13,271 nucleotides of DNA. It comes from Clostridia bacterium (GTDB taxonomy: Bacteria; Bacillota; Clostridia; Christensenellales; Aristaeellaceae). This document shows, in pieces, positions 2,456-13,119 of the stretch. A program made the translations under genes and the position numbers. The notes under the pieces were generated by a model. It worked only from the letters and a program-made list of their open reading frames with translations. It searched no databases and was not told where the DNA came from. The stretch is from positions 1-13,271 of the forward strand of contig JAUNDF010000063.1 of NCBI GenBank assembly GCA_030526225.1, read 5' to 3'. Numbering within the stretch: the first letter of the stretch is position 1; the number at the start of each line of letters is the position of its first letter.

Positions 2456-3250
2456 ATGCAATACCAATTAACCGTATTCCAGGCCAGCCATCAGGGTGCG
2501 CGGGAATACCAGCAGGACCGGATTGCAGCAACGCCGCAGGATGCGCAGCGGGGGATGCTGACGGTGCTGTGTGATGGCATGGGCGGCATGAAGGACGGTG
2601 AGCGCTTTGCATAGACCGGCTGTGAAAGCATGCTGCGTACCTTTAATGCATTGCCCGCCGGCGGGGACATGGCCGATACCTTGTACACCTGCTACAAGCG
2701 GGCCAATGAGGAAGCGCTGAACATCCAGAGCGAGGATGAACGCGAGGCGGGGGGCAGCACCATCACCGCCGTGTATATCCGCGGGGATGAATGCGTGTTT
2801 CTTTCCTCCGGTGACAGCCGCATCTACCTGTGCCGGGGCGGCAGCCTGATTCAGCTTTCCCGCGACCAAAACATGGGCGCGCTGCTGGATGTGCGGGCCG
2901 GGCTGGGGGATATTGACTGGTCCATGGCAAAATCCGCCATGGGCAGAAGCTCCCTCACCGGGCATCTGGGCATGAATGGCGGCCAGCCCTGTGACATCAG
3001 CCCATAGCCCTTCCGCCTTGTGCGGGGGGATGTGCTGCTGCAAATGTCGGATGGCGTGTACGGCACGTTGTCGGATGCGGAGATTCTTGCCTGCATGCAG
3101 GGCGCGGAAAACCCGGCGGAGAGCATCATCGCCGCCACCATCGGCAAAAAGAAACCCCGGCAGGATAACTGCTCGGTGATTGTAACCTATGTGCAAAGCC
3201 CTTATTTCCAGGGTGAAAAAATCACCCGGCACAAGAGAAAAAGGAGGTAA
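2456..3250 (+). CDS. PP2C-family Ser/Thr protein phosphatase (soluble), read through two in-frame TAG codons (2612-2614, 3005-3007). Under table 11 it fragments into 2456..2614, 2630..3007 and 3020..3250, all in the same frame.
   Basis: The SD GAAAGGAGG at 2441-2449 lies 6 nt before ATG 2456. PP2C motifs are spread over all three fragments in the correct order: REYQQD, CDGMGG, GGSTITAV, GDSRIYL, MSDGVYG, QDNCSVIV. The terminator is TAA at 3248-3250. Confidence 0.8.
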
Positions 3251-3256
3251 TGTACC

Positions 3257-4558
3257 TTGGCAAATGAAACGAATACTACATTCAACAACTCTAACCCAAA
3301 TGAAACGGACGAAGAATTTGACACTATCGTCTAGAAAGACGATGGTAAGGAAACTCCGGTCAACGAAACAGAATCAGGTGACGGAAATGATGCTGCAACT
3401 ACAGATATAACAACGGACGAAGCAACAAAAGATGCAGCGAACGAAACAACGAATGAAACCGCAGATGAAACGACAGACGGAGAAAACAACAAGAAATCCG
3501 AAGAACAGGTGACACAAGATAACAATTTCGTTTCAATCTCGGGAGGAGGCTTGACCGTAACAGGGCAGGATAACCAGCAAGCAGACAAACCTGCCGAAGG
3601 AGAACAGGTGACCACCGAGGCTGTTGTTCAAGCTGCCCCCATCGAAGCCCCCGCCAAAACCGGCGGCTTCAATGTATGGCCGCTGGTGATTGTGCTGCTG
3701 ATTGCGGCCCTGGGCGCAGCCGCCTTTGTGCTGTGGAAGAAGCGGCGCGCCGTGCCTGTTATCAGCGATGTGGGTGCCACGGAAGCGGGCGGCGATGTGG
3801 GCATTGGCATCCGCGTGGGCGGCGCCCAGACCATCGGCAAGCGCAGCGATCAGGAGGATTCCCTGTGCTACTCCAACTGGCAGAATGTGGCCGAGTATAA
3901 CGAGCGCGGCCTGCTGGCAGCGGTATCCGACGGCATCGGCGGGCTGGAAAAGAGCGAGCTGGCCAGCCAAACAGCCATGCGCAACATGCGGGTGCGCTTC
4001 CTGAAGCAGGACCCCGCCGTGGCCCCGGCAGACCGCCTGCTGGAGCTGACCGGTGCCGCCCAGCAGGATGTGCTTGCCCTGAACCATGCATTGCCCCAGG
4101 GCAGCAGGGTGATGGGTGCCACGCTGGTCAGTGTGCTGATTCAGCGCAACCTGCTGTGGCTGTCCTCTGTGGGCGACAGCCGCATCTACCTGTACCGCGC
4201 CGGTGCCATGCTGCCCCTCAACCGGCCCCACGTATTCGGCAAGGAGAACCGGGAGGATGCGGTGCTCACCGGCGGTGGCCGTCCCTCCGATGCACGACAG
4301 GATAAAAAGCTCACCGCCTACCTCGGGCAGGAAAACCTGCGCAAGGTGGACCGCAACGTGAACCCCATCAAGCTGATGCCCAGCGACCGTGTGCTGCTGA
4401 TGAGCGACGGCGTGTTCGGCACCGTGGGCGAGGACGAGATGGTCCGCTCCATGGGCCTTAGCCCCGACTTGGCCGCCAAGGACATCATCCGCATGGTGGA
4501 GGCCGCCAACAAACCCCATCAGGATAACGCCACCGTGGTGGTTATCGCACTGGATTAA
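3257..4558 (+). CDS. Membrane-anchored PP2C-family Ser/Thr phosphatase: acidic Thr/Asn/Glu-rich N-terminal tail, one TM helix and a PP2C domain. The start is uncertain. The core 3509..4558 is solid. The longer model starts at TTG 3257 and reads through TAG 3332-3334.
   Basis: PP2C motifs are present: GKRSDQEDS, SDGIGG, GATLVSV, GDSRIYL, MSDGVFG, HQDNATVVVI. The TM helix VWPLVIVLLIAALGAAAFVLW (about 3674-3736) is followed by KKRR, placing the PP2C domain in the cytoplasm. The SD AAAAGGAGG (3239-3247) lies 9 nt before TTG 3257, and the frame stays open into the PP2C domain except for one TAG. Alternative starts are GTG 3509 (no SD) and TTG 3551 (GGAGG at 3542-3546, only 4 nt away). The terminator is TAA at 4556-4558. 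Confidence 0.7.
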
Positions 4559-4571
4559 AGGAGGCAGCAAC

Positions 4572-5840
4572 ATGAAAAGATTCTTTGCCTTGCTGCTGGC
4601 CGTGCTGCTGCTGGCACTGCCGGTGCTGGGTCTGGCAGCAACCTATCAGGATGTGCGCGACAGCGTGGTGCGCATTTATGCTATCGGTTCGTATTACGTC
4701 CCCCAAGAAAATAGATATATAAAGGTTCCTTGGGTAGGCTCTGCCTTTGCCGTGGGCAAAAAGGGCGAGAAGGTGCAGTACTTTGTTACCAACCACCATG
4801 TAACGGGCAAGATTGGCGAATTGGATATTATTCCTGGAAGTGGCGGCATATTGGGCCAGCTGGAGAGCGTGGAGCTGTATGTTGTATATGATGATGTCAC
4901 CAACATGCTTGGTGCCCGTGTGGTGGGATGCCATGACACTGCTGACCTCGCAGTGGTGAGGCTTAATAGTGCCACGGATGTCCGCAAGCCCGTTACCTTC
5001 CATGACCCCAATGCAGATTTAAACAGCTATCAGGGTGAAGCAGTGTACGCATTGGGCTTCCCTGTCGATGGCGATGTTTTCATGAATGCAGACGCACAGG
5101 AATCATTGGCTTCTGCACCTTTTCAGGTGACGGTAAACAATGGCATAATACAGCGCATCCTACCTTCATCAGATACATTCGGCGGCGAAGTAGTTCAACA
5201 TGGTGCTGACATATCCGGCGGCAATTCCGGCGGTCCCCTTGTTACGGCGGACGGCAAGGTCATCGGCGTTAATACTGCCGGTGCGATGGAAGGCAAATAC
5301 TATAGCGCCTTGTCCTACCGCGAAGTACTGAAGATGCTGGATGATTATAATGTCCCCTACCAGACAGGCGGAGCTGGGCTGATGGGCAGCTCCCCGGTGA
5401 CATGGATTATTGCCGGTGTGCTGGCTGTGGCAGTTATCGTGGTGGTGGTGGTGCTGGTGCGCCAGAACAAGAAGGGCACCGCTGTGCCCGATGCCCCTGC
5501 GGCAGTCGCTCCCGCAGCGGATGGTGAAAAGCGTACCCTCCGCGGCGAAACGGGCGCCCTTGCCGGCAAGAGCTTTGTGCTGACCTCCGGCAAGCCGCTG
5601 GTGCTGGGCCGTGACCCGGGCCAGTGCAATGTGCTGTTCCCCAAGGATACGAAGAAGGTCAGCCGCGTTCACTGCACCATCACCCTCACCGGCGGCAAGG
5701 TTACCGTGACCGACAACCGCTCCACCTGCGGCGTGTTGATTGACGGCAACCCCATCCCCGCCGGCGGCACAAAGACATGGCACCGCGGTCAGGTGCTTCA
5801 GATTGGCTCCGATGCCGAACAGTTTACCCTGCATTCCTGA
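4572..5840 (+). CDS. Secreted trypsin-like (S1/Trypsin_2-type) serine protease domain, a TM helix and a C-terminal cytoplasmic FHA domain.
   Basis: The SD AGGAGG at 4558-4563 lies upstream of ATG 4572. The signal peptide reads MKRFFALLLAVLLLALPVLGLAA. Catalytic-triad contexts are TNHHV (His), DLAVVRL (Asp) and GGNSGGPL (Ser codon 5226-5228). The TM helix is WIIAGVLAVAVIVVVVVLV (about 5401-5460). FHA motifs read LVLGRD...SRVHC...NRSTCGVLIDGNPI. The terminator is TGA. Confidence 0.9.
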   Translation: MKRFFALLLAVLLLALPVLGLAATYQDVRDSVVRIYAIGSYYVPQENRYIKVPWVGSAFAVGKKGEKVQYFVTNHHVTGKIGELDIIPGSGGILGQLESVELYVVYDDVTNMLGARVVGCHDTADLAVVRLNSATDVRKPVTFHDPNADLNSYQGEAVYALGFPVDGDVFMNADAQESLASAPFQVTVNNGIIQRILPSSDTFGGEVVQHGADISGGNSGGPLVTADGKVIGVNTAGAMEGKYYSALSYREVLKMLDDYNVPYQTGGAGLMGSSPVTWIIAGVLAVAVIVVVVVLVRQNKKGTAVPDAPAAVAPAADGEKRTLRGETGALAGKSFVLTSGKPLVLGRDPGQCNVLFPKDTKKVSRVHCTITLTGGKVTVTDNRSTCGVLIDGNPIPAGGTKTWHRGQVLQIGSDAEQFTLHS

Positions 5841-5876
5841 TGAAGCATTATCACATATCAATAGGAGGAAATATTC

Positions 5877-6425
5877 ATGAGCAAGCAGTATTTCGACCAG
5901 AGCTACATTTCCGGCGTAACCGACGAAACCATGGCCGCCACCATGGTGGATGCTACCATGGTGGATGACGACGAATCCACCGAGCCCATCACCAACGAAA
6001 CGGAGAATGACGGCTACGGCGAAACCGAGGTTCTCCGCCCCGCAGGCTTTGAGGATGCCCGCCGTGACCCCGTGGTGGGCTGGCTGGTGTGCATCTCAGG
6101 CACAGAGCTGGGCGCCGATTTCCGCATCCACGAGGGCTGGAACACCATCGGCCGCGACCCCTCCAACGACATTGTCATCAACGACCCTGCCGTATCTGCC
6201 GACAAGATGTGCACTCTGCTGTACGATGACCCCACCAAGGCATTCATCATCGCCCGGGGCAACGGCCGCAATCCCTCCCGCATCAACGGCCGCCCGCTGG
6301 TCAGCGAAAAGGAGCTGGCACCCTTCGATCACCTGACCATCGGCAACACCGAGCTGATTTTCGTCCCCCTGTGCGGCGAACAGTTCTCCTGGGAAAGCTT
6401 CCGCAAGGACAACGAAAAGGCATAA
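5877..6425 (+). CDS. Small soluble FHA-domain protein with an acidic, Thr-rich N-terminal tail.
   Basis: The SD AGGAGG at 5863-5868 lies 8 nt before ATG 5877. The FHA core reads GWLVCISGTELGADFRIHEGWNTIGRDPSNDIVINDPAVS...NPSRINGRPL...LTIGNTELIF. The terminator is TAA. Confidence 0.9.
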   Translation: MSKQYFDQSYISGVTDETMAATMVDATMVDDDESTEPITNETENDGYGETEVLRPAGFEDARRDPVVGWLVCISGTELGADFRIHEGWNTIGRDPSNDIVINDPAVSADKMCTLLYDDPTKAFIIARGNGRNPSRINGRPLVSEKELAPFDHLTIGNTELIFVPLCGEQFSWESFRKDNEKA

Positions 6426-6461
6426 CCATGACCCTGCGCAACATTGCATAAAGGAGAGTGA

Positions 6462-8303
6462 TTGTGCCCCATGAGCGAAATGTGCTACCGGTGCATGACC
6501 GAAACCCTTGAAAACGGCACCTGTACCCGATGCGGCAAGCCGAGGTACGTGCCCGAGCCCTCCAATGCCGATGCACTGCCTGTGGGCACCCGGCTGGATA
6601 ACGGCAGCCCCGTGGTGGGCGCCATCCTTGGCCGGGGCGGCTTTGGCATTACCTATGTGGCGCTGGATACGGAAGTGAATCCCCCGCAGAAAATCGCCCT
6701 GAAGGAATACATGCCCCGCCACATGGCCACCAGAAGCGGTCTCAATCTGCAGGTGGACCCTGCCCATCAGGAGGAATACGAGCATTCCCTGCGCGCCTTC
6801 GCCCGGGAAAGCAGCGTGATCGACCGCCTGAAGGAGCACCCCAACATCGTGAAGGTGTTCTATTCCTTTAGGGAAAACAACACCGCCTACTACGGCATGC
6901 AGTTCCTGGAGGGCATGAGCCTGAAGGAATGGATTAAAAAGAGCGGCAAGCCCATGTCCGGCAAGGAAGCATGCATGCTGCTCAATCCCATCATGGATGC
7001 GCTGGCCTACACCCACAAGCAGGGCCTGCTGCACCGTGACATCAGCCCCAACAACATCTTCCTGTGCGGCACCGGCCAAAAGGACGTAACCGCCATGACC
7101 CCCAAGCTGATTGACTTCGGTGCCGCCCATGCCTATGTGGGCGATTATACCAAATCTCTTGCGCTGATTAAGACCAAGGGCTTCACCCCGGTGGAGCAGA
7201 TTCTCTACGGCGCCGAGTGTCAGGGCTCCTGGACGGATGTGTACGCCTTCTGCGCGGTGTTCTACTACGCCATCACCGGCCGCAATCTGCCCGACTCCAA
7301 GGATCGCTACATCGACAACGCCACCTTCCTCACGCCCAATGAGCTGGGGGCAAAAATCCCCAAGGAGGCCGAGAACGCCCTGCTCTCCGGTCTGGCCATC
7401 AACTACAAGGAGCGCACCCAGAACATGGCCGAGCTGCAGGAGAAGCTGTGCAAGGCCTTCGGGATTGCGCCCTACCACTACACCAAAATGGTGGAAAGCA
7501 CCCCGGTGGATCCCGACCCCGGCCCCGCGCCTGTCCACACACCGGTACCCAGACCCGTCGAAGCGCCGGTGCAGCACGAGGCCCCTGCGGCGGTCAAATC
7601 TGCCGACACCCGCATGCGGGACAGAATCCTTGGGGGCATGCTGGAGCTGATTATCTGCTACGCCGCGGCCTTCCTGCTGGTGCCCGGTTGGCAGGCACTG
7701 CTCTACGGCCTTGCCGGCATGACGCTGCTCAACACCGTGCTGTGCTCTGTGGGCGGCGGCGGTACCCTTGGCATGCGCCTCAGCCGCCAGCGGCTGGTGG
7801 ACCAGTCCGGCCGTGTGCCCAGCGTGGCGGTATCCCTTGCATACAGCCTGCTGACGGCGTTCTTCCCCTTCTCCGTGCTGGATTGCCTTGTCAACAGCGG
7901 CGACAAGCCCTGCTGGCGTGAAAAGATGCTGGCGGTGCAGACCGTTTCCTCCGGGGAGAAGGCGCCTGAGGCTCCCGCTGCCGCTGCCCAGAAGAAGCCC
8001 GTCGGAAAGGCTTGGCTGGAGACGGCCGCCGGTGAACGGATTGACGTGGAGAACGGCACGCTGGTCACCCGCCACGGCAAGGACTGCAAGGGCTACAAGC
8101 ATACCATCATCCTCAAGGATGAAATGGTATCCGGCAAGCATTGCGAATTCTATCAGGCAAGGGGCGGCTGGTACGTGCAGGATCTGTACTCCACCAACCA
8201 CACCTACATCAACGGCTCTGCCATTCCCCCCGCGGCTGAGGTTCCCCTTTCCGACGGTACGCGGGTGACCATCGGCGGCACCGACATGACCTTCCATTGC
8301 TGA
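6462..8303 (+). CDS. Hanks-type Ser/Thr protein kinase with an N-terminal CxxC..CxxC zinc ribbon, a central RDD-like multi-TM module and a C-terminal FHA domain.
   Basis: The zinc ribbon CYRC...CTRCG lies at 6483-6533. Kinase motifs are GRGGFGITY (from 6630), ALKEY, HRDISPNN (catalytic Asp 7038-7040) and DFG (7113-7121). The RDD-like part reads RILGGMLELIICY...GTLGMRLSRQRLVDQSGRVPS. FHA motifs read SGKHC...DLYSTNHTYINGSAI. The start is TTG 6462 (GGAG at 6453-6456) or ATG 6471. The terminator is TGA. Confidence 0.9.
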   Translation: MCPMSEMCYRCMTETLENGTCTRCGKPRYVPEPSNADALPVGTRLDNGSPVVGAILGRGGFGITYVALDTEVNPPQKIALKEYMPRHMATRSGLNLQVDPAHQEEYEHSLRAFARESSVIDRLKEHPNIVKVFYSFRENNTAYYGMQFLEGMSLKEWIKKSGKPMSGKEACMLLNPIMDALAYTHKQGLLHRDISPNNIFLCGTGQKDVTAMTPKLIDFGAAHAYVGDYTKSLALIKTKGFTPVEQILYGAECQGSWTDVYAFCAVFYYAITGRNLPDSKDRYIDNATFLTPNELGAKIPKEAENALLSGLAINYKERTQNMAELQEKLCKAFGIAPYHYTKMVESTPVDPDPGPAPVHTPVPRPVEAPVQHEAPAAVKSADTRMRDRILGGMLELIICYAAAFLLVPGWQALLYGLAGMTLLNTVLCSVGGGGTLGMRLSRQRLVDQSGRVPSVAVSLAYSLLTAFFPFSVLDCLVNSGDKPCWREKMLAVQTVSSGEKAPEAPAAAAQKKPVGKAWLETAAGERIDVENGTLVTRHGKDCKGYKHTIILKDEMVSGKHCEFYQARGGWYVQDLYSTNHTYINGSAIPPAAEVPLSDGTRVTIGGTDMTFHC

Positions 8304-8317
8304 AAAGAGGTATTTAT

Positions 8318-9886
8318 ATGATGAAGAAGATTGCGGCACTTGTGCTTGCACTGTGCATGCTGACCATCTGCTTCGGCGCCTTTGCCGCGGGCAGCAACAG
8401 CACCATGAGAATCCTCGGCGGCTCCATCGCCCCGGATAACACCACCACCCTCAACGTGTTTATCCCCGTGACCACACCTGTCAGCGCTGATGAGCTGGAT
8501 GTGCAGGTGGACGGCACCCCCGTGACCATCACCCAGCTGACCGGCGTGCCCACCACCTGGGTGGTTCTGCTGGACAGCTACAGCGAATGGGGCCCTGAGC
8601 GCCTGGACCACATGAAGGATGTGGCGCTGGAAATCATCTCCAAGAACATGGGCAGTGCCGATAACGGTCTGGTCCTGACCGGCGGCAGCGCCTGGAAGAA
8701 CAGCAAGGATCTGCAGTTGGGCAACATCGGCACGGTGAAGGAGGCCATCAAGGCATTTGACGGCAAGAAGTCCGGTGTCACCCCCAATGTGCCTGCGCTC
8801 CATTTCCTCACCGATATGTGGGCCGTTGAGTACATCAACCCCCGCGTGTGTCTGGTGGTCATCAGTGACGGTGCCACGGTGGCCAAGTCCAGCTGGGACA
8901 GCGTGCAGGAAAAGCTGACCAGAACGGATGCCGCCCTGTACGGCATTGCGCTGGTGAAGAACAACGAAAAGCACAAGACCGATGCCCTCCGGACCGTGGC
9001 CGAAAGCAGTCAGGGCGGCAGCTTCTACCGCTATGACAAGAGCGTAAAGACTGAGGATGCGCAGAGCTTCTGCATCAACACCGCCGCCAACATTGTCACG
9101 GCCGAGGCCTGCCAGATGCGGCAGCTGAGCATTCCCGGCACTGTGTTTACCGCCGTACCCAGCCGCTACACCATCGCCCTGAAGAACTCCAATCCTCCGC
9201 TGGATGCCGAATATGTGCTGACCGAGAACGACAAGAAGGGCTACCGCATCGGTGAACCGGCCGAGGGCGAAGAAGCAACGGAAAACGCAGGCGGCGTCAT
9301 CGGTGCAAACGTGCCTGAGGCAGAAGATCCCTGGTACACGAAGACCGAATACCTGGTGGTGGCCGGTCTGGCGCTGGTGCTGGTCATTCTGCTGATTGTG
9401 CTGGTGGTATCCGGCAAGAAGAAGAAGGCCAAGGCTGCCGCTGCCGCCGCTGCTGCTGCCGCAGAAAAGGCAAAGCAGGAGCAGGCCGCTGCAACCGAGG
9501 TCAATGCACCCTCTGCCTTTGTGGCGGATGATGACGGCGGTGCCACTGAGGTTTTGACGCCTCCCGCCGGTGCCCGCCCCACCTGCCGCCTGCAGCTGGC
9601 ACAGGAGAACAGCAGCAACGTGTACACCGCCGAATTTGCCAAGAATCTGCTGGTTGGCCGCAGCTGCCAAAAGGCTGACCTGACCGTGTACCCCGAGGAC
9701 AAGAAGATTTCCGGCCTCAACAGCGAGTTCTCCTTCCACAATGGTGTCATGACCCTGAAGGACCGCGGCTCCACCAACGGCACCTTCCTCAACGGCTCCA
9801 AGCTTACCGGCGAGGTGCGCGTCAATCAGCATGACGTTGTGAAGATGGGCACCACCCGGTTCCGCGTTACCTGGACGGTACTGTAA
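8318..9886 (+). CDS. Signal peptide, a vWA-like extracytoplasmic domain, a TM helix, a Lys/Ala-rich juxtamembrane tract and a C-terminal FHA domain.
   Basis: The SD AAGAGG at 8305-8310 lies 7 nt before ATG 8318, which I prefer over the track's TTG 8297. The signal peptide reads MMKKIAALVLALCMLTICFGAFA. vWA-like strands are WVVLLDSYSE and CLVVISDG, but the MIDAS motif is not a canonical DxSxS, so the vWA call is moderate. The TM helix is YLVVAGLALVLVILLIVLVV (about 9350-9410). FHA motifs read LLVGRS...ISGLNS...DRGSTNGTFLNGSKL. The terminator is TAA. Confidence 0.8.
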   Translation: MMKKIAALVLALCMLTICFGAFAAGSNSTMRILGGSIAPDNTTTLNVFIPVTTPVSADELDVQVDGTPVTITQLTGVPTTWVVLLDSYSEWGPERLDHMKDVALEIISKNMGSADNGLVLTGGSAWKNSKDLQLGNIGTVKEAIKAFDGKKSGVTPNVPALHFLTDMWAVEYINPRVCLVVISDGATVAKSSWDSVQEKLTRTDAALYGIALVKNNEKHKTDALRTVAESSQGGSFYRYDKSVKTEDAQSFCINTAANIVTAEACQMRQLSIPGTVFTAVPSRYTIALKNSNPPLDAEYVLTENDKKGYRIGEPAEGEEATENAGGVIGANVPEAEDPWYTKTEYLVVAGLALVLVILLIVLVVSGKKKKAKAAAAAAAAAAEKAKQEQAAATEVNAPSAFVADDDGGATEVLTPPAGARPTCRLQLAQENSSNVYTAEFAKNLLVGRSCQKADLTVYPEDKKISGLNSEFSFHNGVMTLKDRGSTNGTFLNGSKLTGEVRVNQHDVVKMGTTRFRVTWTVL

Positions 9887-9893
9887 CAATACA

Positions 9894-9935
9894 CGCCGCC
9901 GCATGGCTGTGCTGTGCGGCGGTAAATTCCTTTTA
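9894..9935 (+). terminator. Candidate rho-independent terminator after the vWA-FHA gene.
   Basis: A perfect 8-bp stem pairs CCGCCGCA (9896-9903) with TGCGGCGG (9915-9922) around an 11-nt loop. A T-rich stretch TTCCTTTTAT (about 9927-9936) follows. It begins 8 nt after the TAA at 9884-9886. Confidence 0.55.
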
Positions 9936-9958
9936 TCATTGAAAGCGGGTGTTATTGT

Positions 9959-10864
9959 ATGTACAACAACCCTCAGCAAACGCTGGCAGGGCTTTGGGGC
10001 TTTGTTGCCGGCTATTTCGCGGTGATTGCCGTCATCAGTGCGGCCATTACGGTGCTGACCATCATCGGCTTGTGGAAGACCATTGCCAAAACAGGGGAGC
10101 CCGGCTGGAAGGCCCTCATTCCGATCCTGAATGAATATGTCCTGTGCGACCGCTGCTGGGAAAAGAACGCGTTCTGGGTGATGCTGGGCGTGGCCCTGGG
10201 CTGCGGTGTGCCCGTGGTGAACATCATCTGCAGTATTGCAATGGTGGTGCTGTGGGTGATGCTGTGCATCCGCATCAGCGCTGCCTTCGGCAAAGAGCTG
10301 CCCTTCGCCATCGGCATGATTTTCCTGCCCCCGGTGTTCTTTATGATTCTGGGCTTTGGCAGCAGCCGCTACATCGGCCCCTCCAGCTTCAAAATCCCCA
10401 CCCCCGTGCCGGAATACGGCAACAAGGCCAGGGCTGATTACAGGCCCGCAGTGGATGACATGGACAAAACCGTCCCCGCACCCCGTCCTGTCATGCCGCC
10501 CCCTGCCCCTGTGCAAGTCCCCGCGCCTGCTCCCGCAGAGCAGCACTATCATGTGCTGACGGTTGAAATGAAAAATGTGCACAGCGGCACCGTGTACAAA
10601 AAGTCCGTCAAGGGCAGCAAGCTGAATGTGGGCCGCAGTGCATCCAAGTCCCAGCTGGTCATCGCCGATGATGCCAAGCTGTCCGGTGCGCATATTCAGC
10701 TGAAGTGCAAGGACAACACCCTGTACATCACCGACCTTGAAAGCACCAACGGCACCGCCGTCAACGGCAAAAAGCTGACCCACACCGCCCCGCTGAAGCC
10801 CACCGACACGGTGACCATCGGCAAGGCACAATACACCATAAAATGGAAGTACAGCCTGAAATAA
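9959..10864 (+). CDS. DUF5684-like polytopic membrane domain, a Pro-rich linker and a C-terminal FHA domain.
   Basis: The sequence GLWKTIAKTGEPGWKALIPILNEYVL...ISAAFGKELPFAIGMIFLPPVFFMILGFGSSRY matches my recollection of the DUF5684 family signature. FHA motifs read LNVGRS...LSGAHIQL...DLESTNGTAVNGKKL. The SD before ATG 9959 is weak. The terminator is TAA. Confidence 0.85.
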   Translation: MYNNPQQTLAGLWGFVAGYFAVIAVISAAITVLTIIGLWKTIAKTGEPGWKALIPILNEYVLCDRCWEKNAFWVMLGVALGCGVPVVNIICSIAMVVLWVMLCIRISAAFGKELPFAIGMIFLPPVFFMILGFGSSRYIGPSSFKIPTPVPEYGNKARADYRPAVDDMDKTVPAPRPVMPPPAPVQVPAPAPAEQHYHVLTVEMKNVHSGTVYKKSVKGSKLNVGRSASKSQLVIADDAKLSGAHIQLKCKDNTLYITDLESTNGTAVNGKKLTHTAPLKPTDTVTIGKAQYTIKWKYSLK

Positions 10865-10885
10865 GGCGCGACAAGGAGGAGAACC

Positions 10886-13119
10886 ATGTCCAGCAAACTT
10901 AGACAAACCACCGCTCTCCTGCTTGCCCTTGTGCTGCTGATGGCAGCCATGCCCGCCGGGGCAGAGGTAAAGCTGTGGCGGTGCCAATATGATCAAACAG
11001 TTAATTTTGACACGAAATGCAGTGAGTGCGGAAGAAAAAAGGAGTATGCTATAATCAATCCCGCACAAGCGGTTATATCTGTTGATTTAAGAAAACGTAT
11101 GGCATATGAGCGATACGATATGAGTTATACCGGTCGTATCGATAGCTCATGGGAAGAATTAGGTTTAGAACCTGTTCCGTTGCATTATACAAAAGGCTAT
11201 ACATACTGCAAGCTGAAGGATGGAACCATAGAAATCTATAGAATAGATATTTCTTTCGGCGAAGAAAACTGTACCATTCCAGAAACCATTGATGGATATA
11301 AGGTTACTGCAATAGGTGACAATGCACTAGAATAGGGCTATGACCTGCAGACTGTTACCATCCCTGCTAGTATAACCTATATTGGAGGAAACCTACTCTG
11401 CAATGCAGATGAATTGAAAACAATCATTATTGATGGCGAGTCACAGTATCTTTAGGTTGTGGACGGCGTTTTGTTTACAAAGACAGATAAGCGTTTGGTG
11501 TGCTATCCGCCCAAGAAAGAAAACAAGCATTATTCAATTCCTGAAGGGACAAGGATATCGGTTCGACAGCGTTTGCCTATGCGCAGTTTTCTTCCTTGAC
11601 TATCCCTGACAGTGTGAAGGTGCTAGAGGATAACGTGTTTTATGAATGCGATAAGTTGGGCAGTGTTACTCTCCCAAGCAGTGTAGAGGCAATTGGTACG
11701 AATCCGGGATATGGTGACAAAGATTACAGAAGGAACAGAAGGACCAAAAGGCTGCCTATCAAGGTTGATAAGAAAAATCCATATTTTGAAACTGTCGATA
11801 ATTCACTGATTTCAAAAGTAGACAAGCGATTGATTAGTTGCTGGCAGACGGGTTCGTGTACAGTTCCTGATAGAACTGTAACTATCGGTGAAAAAGCATT
11901 TGCTTAGACTAAAGTTACAGAAGTTATTCTGCCTGATTCGGTCAAGAGCATAGAAAACAAGGCTTTCGAACGATGTGAACAGCTTACTGAAATCAGACTT
12001 CCGGAAAATTTGGAAAGCATAGGAGAATATGCATTTGCATCCTCCGGTTTGACATCTGTCACCTTTCCAACATCACTGCAAACAATTGGCGACAGGGCCT
12101 TCAGAGGAAGCAAGCTAAAGGAAATAGATTTTGGTGAAGGTTCTCCCCAATTGGGTGTTTAGGTATTTTCGTATAATGATAATTTAATAAATGTAGAAAT
12201 ACCCGGGAATATTAATCAATTGCCATTTTGTACCTTTAACAGTTGTGAAAATTTGGAACAGGTTTTGATACGCGAAGGCGTGAAGAACATTGGCAATCAG
12301 GCATTTTATTCTTGTGTGAGTCTGAAGAGCGTTATCATTCCTGACAGTGTCATAGGTAACAATATTTTTCAGGACTGTCCAAATGTGATTGCCACGGTAA
12401 ATGAAGGATCTTATGCGGAGTAGTATTGCAAAAACAATGGTATAAAGTATGTGCTTAACACAGAGTATGTACCTGCTGTGTTGGAAAATGCGCCCTACAA
12501 GCTGAATCTTCCCATTGCTGATGGTCACTATATAATGAAAATGATATATGGTGACAAATGCACAATCGAAATGGTAGATGTTCCATAGGGAGCACATGAA
12601 GCATGGATACGGACAACAGAAGGATATGACTATAGCTATGTTTATGGCAATTAGTTATATTTCGAATCGAATGAGTTCATGAAAGAGGGCACAAGCTTAG
12701 CATATGTGCTTGTGTATGATGACAACGATAATGTGTTGTATTCGTATCCTCTTGAGATTACGGCAACAAGCCCTAATGGAACGTTTGATGTAGCTGTTGT
12801 CAGCGTTGAACTGTTTGATGGGCCAACAGAAGAAGCAAAATGGGTCCGCATACAATGCAAAGCAGATTCTCGGGATGTGCAAAAAGCAATAACCTCGGGA
12901 GAAATCAAATCTCTTTCATGTAACGGTGGATTTGCGTTCACTGCTTTTGCGAGCAAGCCATATCTTGGTTAGGATAATAATTTGATTTTTTAGTATCAAC
13001 CGTCTTCAGATGAGGGAACTTTCAAGGTTGTGATGGATGTTTTTGCCAAAGGCTACAGCAATGCCGAAGTTACAGTGGAATACACTGTGAAAGATGGTGA
13101 ACTTACCTTCACCCCCTAA
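10886..13119 (+). CDS. Secreted BspA-type LRR (LRR_5) protein with an uncharacterised C-terminal beta-rich region. It is read through nine in-frame TAG codons and needs one -1 frame change near 11551, which may be an indel, an assembly error or pseudogenisation.
   Basis: The SD AAGGAGG at 10873-10879 lies upstream of ATG 10886. The signal peptide reads MSSKLRQTTALLLALVLLMAAMPAGA. LRR_5 motifs continue across the first five TAGs (11333-12421): AIGDNALE[TAG]GYDLQTVTIP, SQYL[TAG]VVDGVLFTKTDKRLVCYP, IGEKAFA[TAG]TKVTEVILPDSVKSIENKAFERC, LGV[TAG]VFSYNDNLINVEIP, EGSYAE[TAG]YCKNNGIKY. After the last four TAGs (12586, 12652, 12970, 12991) only the open frame continues. The frame is 2 up to 11551 and 1 afterwards. 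Frame 1 stays open, apart from TAGs, to TAA 13117-13119. I checked this codon by codon for 11881-12720 and 12961-13119 and relied on the supplied ORF track elsewhere. Confidence 0.65.
11540..11600 (+). other. Frameshift site within the LRR gene (frame 2 to frame 1, net -1).
   Basis: Frame 2 reads YSIPEGT and then degenerates (RISVRQRLPMRSFLP) to TGA 11597-11599. Frame 1 from 11551 reads KDIGSTAFAYAQFSSLTIPDSVKVLEDNVFYEC, which is the expected LRR_5 continuation. Frame 1 is closed upstream by TGA 11542-11544, so the switch must lie within 11545-11553. Confidence 0.75.

Follow-up and report, generated by a model that had tools for sequence, protein, structure and literature searches.

TAG as a probable, constitutively decoded sense codon in a Clostridia bacterium, seen from a phosphatase, kinase and FHA gene cluster

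The window analyzed here, a stretch of 13,271 nucleotides that equals contig JAUNDF010000063.1 (C61 in the following) of the assembly GCA_030526225.1 of a gut-type Clostridia bacterium, raises an unusual question about the genetic code. It comprises a cluster of genes for PP2C phosphatases, a Ser/Thr kinase and FHA-domain proteins, flanked on either side by a gene for a surface protein with LRR_5 repeats, and in-frame TAG codons are frequent in some of these genes and missing from others. Are the TAG-bearing genes completed only when a suppressor tRNA is active, as an earlier note on this DNA had considered, do the genes differ in their origin, or is TAG just a codon that some genes use more often than others? 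We found that TAG is decoded constitutively in this bacterium. Taking all evidence into account, it is likely that TAG is a rare sense codon which is read at all times, most likely as glutamate (Glu), that release factor 1 (RF1) has been lost, and that the number of TAGs per gene follows codon bias and involves no regulation.

TAG throughout the genome and the empty prfA slot

The assembly (2.19 Mb in 136 contigs, 57% GC) is approximately 80% complete. Genes were called with a two-class codon model of our own, which accepts only TAA and TGA as stops and was seeded by amino-acid composition. This seed avoids the long antisense open reading frames (ORFs) of the GC-rich genome, and the resulting model reproduces the Pfam-supported genes of the window. 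It delivered 1,847 genes with 631,217 codons, among them 358 in-frame TAGs in 258 genes, which corresponds to 0.57 TAG per 1,000 codons. TAG-bearing genes occur on 89 of the 136 contigs and, if only contigs with at least 3,000 codons are considered, on 69 of 77. They are not confined to one functional class, as genes of translation, replication and division are among them. The genes valS, dnaJ, rodA, ligA, rlmN and minD match their NCBIfam models across the TAG, and valS, a contig-edge fragment, does so over all its length. One in-frame TAG each was detected in prmC and recD2.

Within genes, the positions of TAG are flat, with 24-38 occurrences per gene decile, and the last ten codons hold 6 TAGs, while 7.2 would be expected under uniformity. 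Since TAGs do not pile up at gene ends, TAG does not terminate even a few percent of the genes. Tail-like occurrences were counted 84 times for TAG versus about 690 times each for TAA and TGA. From ORF totals and crude terminator counts, TAG had appeared as a candidate for a normal stop; the split between tail-like and internal occurrences, together with the positional uniformity, ruled this out. In the window itself, 10 of 10 gene ends are TAA or TGA.

The RF1 gene prfA was detected in all 24 relatives (24/24) and remained undetected in this genome. Four relatives share the gene order DUF1385-prmC-prfA-...-sua5, whereas the order found here is DUF1385-prmC-[43 bp]-sua5 (C109:22069-25091). Hence the conserved slot for prfA, between prmC and sua5, lacks the gene here. 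Because TAG resides in essential housekeeping genes and on most large contigs, does not accumulate at gene ends, and prfA is missing, we conclude that its decoding is constitutive. As a side observation, the one TAG of prmC is located in the very gene next to which the RF1 gene is gone.

TAG content and codon bias

The earlier note had proposed a test for association of TAG usage with function, GC content or position. Mapping TAG per gene over the whole genome revealed a link to the GC content of third codon positions (GC3) and to codon typicality rather than to functional class. From genes with GC3 <0.4 to those with GC3 >0.8, TAG falls from 9.9 to 0.30 per 1,000 codons. When genes are ranked by codon typicality, scored with TAG left out, and split into octiles, the density drops from 1.81 per 1,000 in atypical to 0.075 in optimised genes, which is about 24-fold. 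This trend is kept in ORFs of at least 300 and of at least 450 codons and was thus not created by spurious short ORFs. Other codons are distributed alike: low-GC3 genes are enriched relative to high-GC3 genes 14x in TAG, 27x in CTA, 24x in TTA, 22x in ATA and 18x in CCA, and GC3-rich genes contain 0.43 TAG, 0.40 TTA and 0.44 CCA per 1,000 codons. TAG behaves like the other rare AT-rich codons of this genome. That it is used like them, and about as often, points to a reassignment that is long-standing and complete, and not to leaky suppression. One contig is conspicuous in this respect: C7 (7,372 codons) contains zero in-frame TAG, though several would be expected at its mean GC3 of 0.645.

Expected counts were obtained from a Poisson model with GC3 and typicality as predictors, and contig C61 was left out of the fit. 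Genome-wide, the model leaves no overdispersion (dispersion 1.01). The genes of the window, all of them on the + strand, and the low-GC part of the last one are the following:

2-2254, +, upstream LRR surface protein with a PT-rich linker, BspA-type LRR_5 repeats and DUF6273; 5' end open, TAG at 1481-1483, ends with TAA
2456-3250, +, phosphatase PP2C-1, 264 codons from ATG 2456; TAG at 2612-2614 and 3005-3007, ends with TAA
3257-4558, +, PP2C-2 with an acidic low-complexity N-terminus, one transmembrane segment and the PP2C core; TAG at 3332-3334, ends with TAA
4572-5840, +, trypsin-like protease-FHA protein; no TAG, ends with TGA
5877-6425, +, small stand-alone FHA protein; no TAG, ends with TAA
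6462-8303, +, Ser/Thr kinase-FHA protein; no TAG, ends with TGA
8297-9886, +, vWA-FHA protein; no TAG, ends with TAA
9959-10864, +, DUF5684-FHA protein; no TAG, ends with TAA
10886-13119, +, downstream LRR_5 surface protein with a signal peptide; about 744 codons in two joined frames, nine TAGs, final TAA
11020-13119, +, low-GC cassette, which corresponds to the mature part of the downstream LRR protein only; about 33-45% GC in a 150-nt GC profile, GC3 0.37-0.41

All domains that the earlier note had named were recovered by Pfam, and the clustering of TAG by gene that it described proved correct. In-frame TAGs are located at 1481, 2612, 3005 and 3332, the two of PP2C-1 being codons 53 and 184 counted from its ATG, and nine are found in the downstream LRR gene (11333 and 11453 in its first frame; 11905, 12160, 12421, 12586, 12652, 12970 and 12991 in its second), while the stretch from 3335 to 11332 contains zero. 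The TAG of PP2C-2 sits in the acidic N-terminal extension and that of the upstream LRR gene in the lower-GC half of the gene. Within the window this clustering is real: if its 13 TAGs were spread evenly over about 4,300 codons, the chance of the TAG-free block of about 2,350 codons would be about 3e-5. However, compared against the genome-wide rate, the TAG-free core is not unusual, and it is the TAG density of the downstream LRR gene that stands out.

The five TAG-free core genes (4572-10864) have a GC3 of 0.63-0.81. Together with the PP2C-2 core from 3608 onward they form the modelled kinase/FHA core of 2,353 codons, for which the model expects 1.02 TAG; 0 were observed (P(0) = 0.36). For PP2C-1, 0.36 TAG are expected and 2 observed (P(>=2) = 0.05), and for the upstream LRR gene 0.44 are expected and 1 observed (P(>=1) = 0.36). 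Only the downstream LRR gene, with 40% GC, exceeds its expectation, which is 2.8, as it comprises 9 (P(>=9) = 0.002); it is also the reason why C61 has the highest TAG density among the large contigs. The earlier note had itself named sampling noise or a GC effect as what would undo its reading of the cluster, and for the kinase/FHA core and PP2C-1 the counts turned out this way.

Apart from its codons, the cluster at 2456-10864 is unusual in its content, as two PP2C phosphatases, one Ser/Thr kinase and five FHA-domain proteins are enclosed by an LRR surface protein on either side. The FHA domain is paired with a protease, a kinase, a vWA domain and DUF5684, and the fifth FHA protein stands alone. 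An exact-protein look-up with the FHA protein revealed no other assembly that carries an identical protein. In PP2C-1 all four PP2C motifs (DGMGG, GDSR, SDG and DN) are readable. The upstream LRR gene is a GC mosaic, with 63% in the first 1 kb, including the PT-rich linker, and about 49% over 1001-2000. Opposite the vWA-FHA and DUF5684-FHA genes, the window contains an antisense ORF of 971 aa (8153-11068, - strand); genome-wide, the -1 frame of native genes is nearly devoid of any stop triplet (0.18-0.75 per 1,000), and long antisense ORFs of this kind could mislead annotation pipelines.

The residue at TAG and the TAG-rich accessory genes

Which amino acid is inserted at TAG was approached by alignments. 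Aligned with paralogues from the same genome, 44 TAG sites could be compared: the commonest partner was Glu at 18 of them, with fewer sites for Q (5), K (4) and D (3). The TAG site of recD2 is occupied in 23 relatives by E (19), D (3) or Q (1). In rodA the TAG lies in the motif QPSxF and corresponds to the Glu of QPSE in the solved RodA/MrdB structures, and the TAG site of valS aligns with Asp. The TAG of the upstream LRR gene is found at the 'IG' position of an LRR_5 repeat, where homologues have G in 71%, E in 7% and D in 7%, and other LRR_5 repeats of the window genes have E at this position. Judged from the paralogue, recD2, rodA and valS sites, TAG is most likely read as Glu rather than glutamine (Gln). 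The earlier note had assumed Gln and had assigned roughly a third of the apparent Gln positions of the downstream LRR gene to TAG; read as the more likely Glu, its TAGs would amount to about 14% of its Glu codons.

The downstream LRR gene itself required correction as well. Its nine TAGs in about 744 codons stood as first described, whereas the single frame did not: two frames join near the GGG run at 11546-11548, and the first is closed by a TGA at 11597-11599, past the frame change. With one extra G at 11546-11548 the protein reads ...IPEGDKDIGSTAFAY..., a normal LRR_5 repeat (window 11540-11565). The frame change could be an assembly error of one base, a recent frameshift, or a variable tract. 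Over about 743 codons, TAA and TGA together occur 0 times in frame, while the other two frames contain 33 and 58 and shuffled versions 35 (minimum 15 in 2,000 shuffles). With 9 TAG, 0 TAA and 0 TGA in frame, the gene is thus a maintained ORF that tolerates TAG and not a decaying pseudogene.

The GC content is 51-55% both over the DNA of the signal peptide (10886 to about 11000, about 55%) and in the DNA that follows the stop; in between it falls to about 39% from 11,000-11,050 onward and is back at about 52% at the stop. By this profile, the coding sequence of the mature protein resembles a cassette that has been exchanged. Neither flanking repeats nor integrase or mobility genes were found around it, and no promoter or terminator signal exceeded chance there. 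The C-terminal portion of about 220 residues is an orphan domain, for which a search of 399 class-level genomes provided no close homologue. For the protein as a whole, no homologue above about 39% identity was found among 40 relatives, viral contigs, genome contigs, metagenome contigs and 5.8 billion proteins, and a PHROGs search yielded LRR-domain matches only.

The cassette has counterparts elsewhere in the genome. AT-rich, TAG-rich islets of a single gene are placed between native genes on C125, C130, C16 and C109. Taking the 25 low-GC3 genes together, TAG is overdispersed by 3.8, compared to 1.0-2.2 for the other rare codons tested, and 11 of the 25 lack TAG while using CTA normally. One member of this TAG-free set has a Fic domain, another resembles a Dcm-type cytosine methylase, and a third is the low-GC LRR_5 paralogue of C104, whose 521 codons include 0 TAG. 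In a ThsA-macro gene, TAG occurs once. In contrast, the low-GC LRR_5 paralogues on C109 and C16 are rich in TAG, with 6 TAGs in 450 codons and 4 in 722, respectively. The one on C109 (C109:1748-3097) ends with ...WLK-TAG-stop, and this terminal TAG, directly in front of the real stop, may be a former TAG terminator which is now read through by one codon. The densest gene of the genome is an orphan ORF of 277 codons (C28:133-966, - strand, 31% GC) with 11 in-frame TAGs and neither TAA nor TGA. It lies at a contig edge and adjoins native GC-rich genes; no match to it was found in Pfam, PHROG or viral contigs, and two further TAG-rich orphan genes likewise had no match in viral contigs.

A gene from a donor that uses the standard code cannot bring internal TAGs along, and thus the split into TAG-free and TAG-rich genes fits two sources of accessory DNA. 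One might therefore envision that the mature part of the downstream LRR gene was recombined in from a low-GC pool which reads TAG as sense and uses it at about 1%. We consider this possible, though only tentatively, and it would complement codon bias as the main explanation rather than replace it. The pool might consist of related strains, plasmids or phages, while the TAG-free genes might be recent imports in the standard code. In favor of this idea are the fall to about 39% GC just past the signal peptide and the recovery at the stop, the 9 TAGs versus 2.8 expected, and the overdispersion of the low-GC3 genes, 11 of them TAG-free and their LRR_5 paralogues differing between C104 on the one hand and C109 and C16 on the other. 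On the other hand, the viral, genome and metagenome collections and the 5.8 billion proteins contained no donor or close homologue, the sample comprises only 25 genes, one of which inflates the dispersion by its 11 TAGs, and the LRR island is free of mobility genes and flanking repeats. Somewhat more speculative still is the generalization that TAG content marks provenance, with 'code-naive' imports (0 TAG, defence-type) set apart from 'code-adapted' genes (about 1% TAG, the LRR cassette included). The earlier note had offered different evolutionary origins of the window genes as one explanation. The LRR cassette of about 39% GC, the link to codon class and the TAG-free/TAG-rich split speak for it, and from this small sample the reading with two sources is supported in part.

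Competing explanations and related codes

How could the TAG pattern of the window have arisen? In the scenario that we favor, RF1 was lost, and TAG would no longer act as a stop and would be decoded at all times, presumably by a tRNA with a CUA anticodon, which was not recovered in the 80%-complete assembly. As a rare, AT-rich and non-preferred codon, TAG would be placed by mutation and selection on the same axis as CTA, TTA and ATA. Native genes with optimised codons and a high GC3, among them the kinase/FHA core, would hence contain hardly any TAG, and it would be common in AT-rich accessory genes of atypical composition, of which the downstream LRR gene is an example. The counts in PP2C-1 (two) and in PP2C-2 and the upstream LRR gene (one each) agree with Poisson sampling. 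Every protein of the operon would be made in full and constantly, and the TAG pattern would hold no regulatory information.

Several points weigh against this scenario. The downstream LRR gene lies about 3x above the model, so that codon bias alone does not account for it; a further cause, such as the recombination discussed above, may contribute. With respect to the residue, the TAG of minD (C27:6512-7321) aligns with K or Q in solved structures, that of dnaJ (C25:20862-21977) falls on what we take to be the conserved Tyr of the J-domain motif KR..YD, and the TAG sites of the window itself are at variable positions and do not identify a residue. The gene calls come from our own codon-model caller and not from a validated program. 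Searches of this genome for the release-factor family recovered neither RF1 nor RF2 (prfB). The failure to recover prfB shows that the assembly is incomplete, and for the absence of prfA the evidence is the synteny on a single contig. Finally, ARAGORN in default, relaxed and intron settings delivered only noise and no tRNA(CUA) anywhere in the assembly; since the recovered tRNA set is visibly incomplete, this says little.

The missing tRNA might be taken as a hint that the suppressor is carried by a phage or mobile element, or is regulated, and that PP2C-1 and the LRR proteins are completed only when it is active. The uneven distribution of TAG within the window and the analogy with TAG-recoded gut phages, in which the code is changed by suppressor tRNAs in the course of infection (PMC10879173, PMC11210395), fit such conditional amber suppression. 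Yet TAG is present within essential genes (valS, ligA, rodA, prmC and others), no genes end at TAG, prfA is deleted from its slot, the TAG-free core is expected by chance, and the counts per gene are Poisson-distributed once codon bias is considered. Genes of translation, replication and division need TAG to be decoded at all times, and gating of PP2C-1 and the LRR genes, as proposed in the earlier note, is thus unsupported and in our judgement very improbable.

Decay could be envisioned as well, with the TAG-bearing genes of the window being pseudogenes and their TAGs nonsense mutations. Surface LRR genes are often dispensable, and the downstream one has the frame change near 11546-11548 in addition. 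However, nonsense mutations would not spare TAA and TGA: only TAG is found in frame, with 0 TAA/TGA in the LRR gene where about 35 are expected, the Pfam domains are intact and run across the TAGs, and the same TAG-only pattern is found in 258 genes, including essential ones. Such decay is accordingly most unlikely. An artefact of assembly or binning, in which an AT-rich, TAG-rich stretch of another recoded organism or phage was joined to or binned with a genome in the standard code, would explain the abrupt GC change and the short contig, which ends about 150 nt past the downstream LRR gene, and Shulgina and Eddy (PMC8629427) caution that a reassigned stop codon may be mimicked by contamination. 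Against it, the GC change lies inside one continuous ORF, past a signal peptide of native composition, and native-like GC returns after the stop; sense TAG is found in GC-rich native genes on 69 of the 77 large contigs; and the islets on C125, C130, C16 and C109 are similarly AT-rich and TAG-rich between native genes. We therefore give this artefact hardly any credence. A constitutively decoded TAG whose frequency follows codon bias remains the likely explanation.

Bacterial reassignments of UGA with loss of RF2 are established in table 4 (UGA=Trp; Mycoplasmatales and some endosymbionts) and in table 25 (UGA=Gly; Gracilibacteria/Absconditabacteria). Like these, the present case concerns a stop reassigned genome-wide, the loss of the cognate release factor, and a level of usage set by genome composition. 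In contrast to them, UAG and RF1 are affected, the probable residue is Glu, and the genome is GC-rich (57%) and of a free-living type, neither reduced nor AT-rich. Judged by likeness, we regard the UGA reassignments as the closest known systems. In the codon-capture picture of Osawa and Jukes, which is a theory and not a system, a codon vanishes as a stop and reappears as a rare sense codon. Our data resemble it in that TAG is scarcest in highly adapted genes and commoner in weakly constrained or AT-rich ones, while the TAG-free and TAG-rich accessory classes are not predicted by codon capture alone.

Outside Bacteria, UAG encodes pyrrolysine (Pyl) in some archaea. UAR is read as Glu in peritrich ciliates and Blastocrithidia (PMC12153298). 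In these codes, too, UAG stands for an amino acid genome-wide, and the eukaryotic cases share Glu, which is favored here at aligned sites; however, they are found outside the bacterial domain, where the release-factor system differs and consists of one factor, aRF1 or eRF1. In the engineered E. coli C321.deltaA all TAG stops were removed and prfA was deleted (PMC8511705). Both genomes lack TAG terminators and RF1, and TAG is free for a suppressor tRNA, but unlike the synthetic strain the bacterium studied here is natural, and TAG has spread back into hundreds of its genes. In TAG-recoded gut phages of genetic code 15 (crAss-like, Lak and others), recoding is modelled to delay late or lytic translation (PMC10879173, PMC11210395, PMC10607447). 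As in these phages, in-frame TAG represents an amino acid, is uneven among genes and is lacking in some of them. Unlike there, a bacterial chromosome is concerned, housekeeping genes on most contigs carry TAG, RF1 is missing, the residue looks like Glu and not Gln, and the unevenness follows codon bias instead of temporal or functional class, so that no code switch is needed. Phage code 15 thus serves as a functional analogy. Shulgina and Eddy (2021, PMC8629427) state that every stop reassignment known from bacteria involves UGA, and our literature search found no bacterial code that reads UAG as Glu.

Taken together, the window appears to offer a glimpse of a natural bacterial code with UAG as a sense codon and without RF1, for which we found no published case. 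Suppression should not be invoked as a switch for the kinase/FHA/PP2C operon. If the genome were annotated with table 11, approximately 14% of the proteins of this organism would be cut short, including PP2C-1 and both LRR surface proteins of the window. Beyond this, TAG content appears to separate accessory genes by their likely origin. If it truly marks provenance, an unseen low-GC pool would share the TAG-sense code and exchange cassettes of surface proteins with this lineage.

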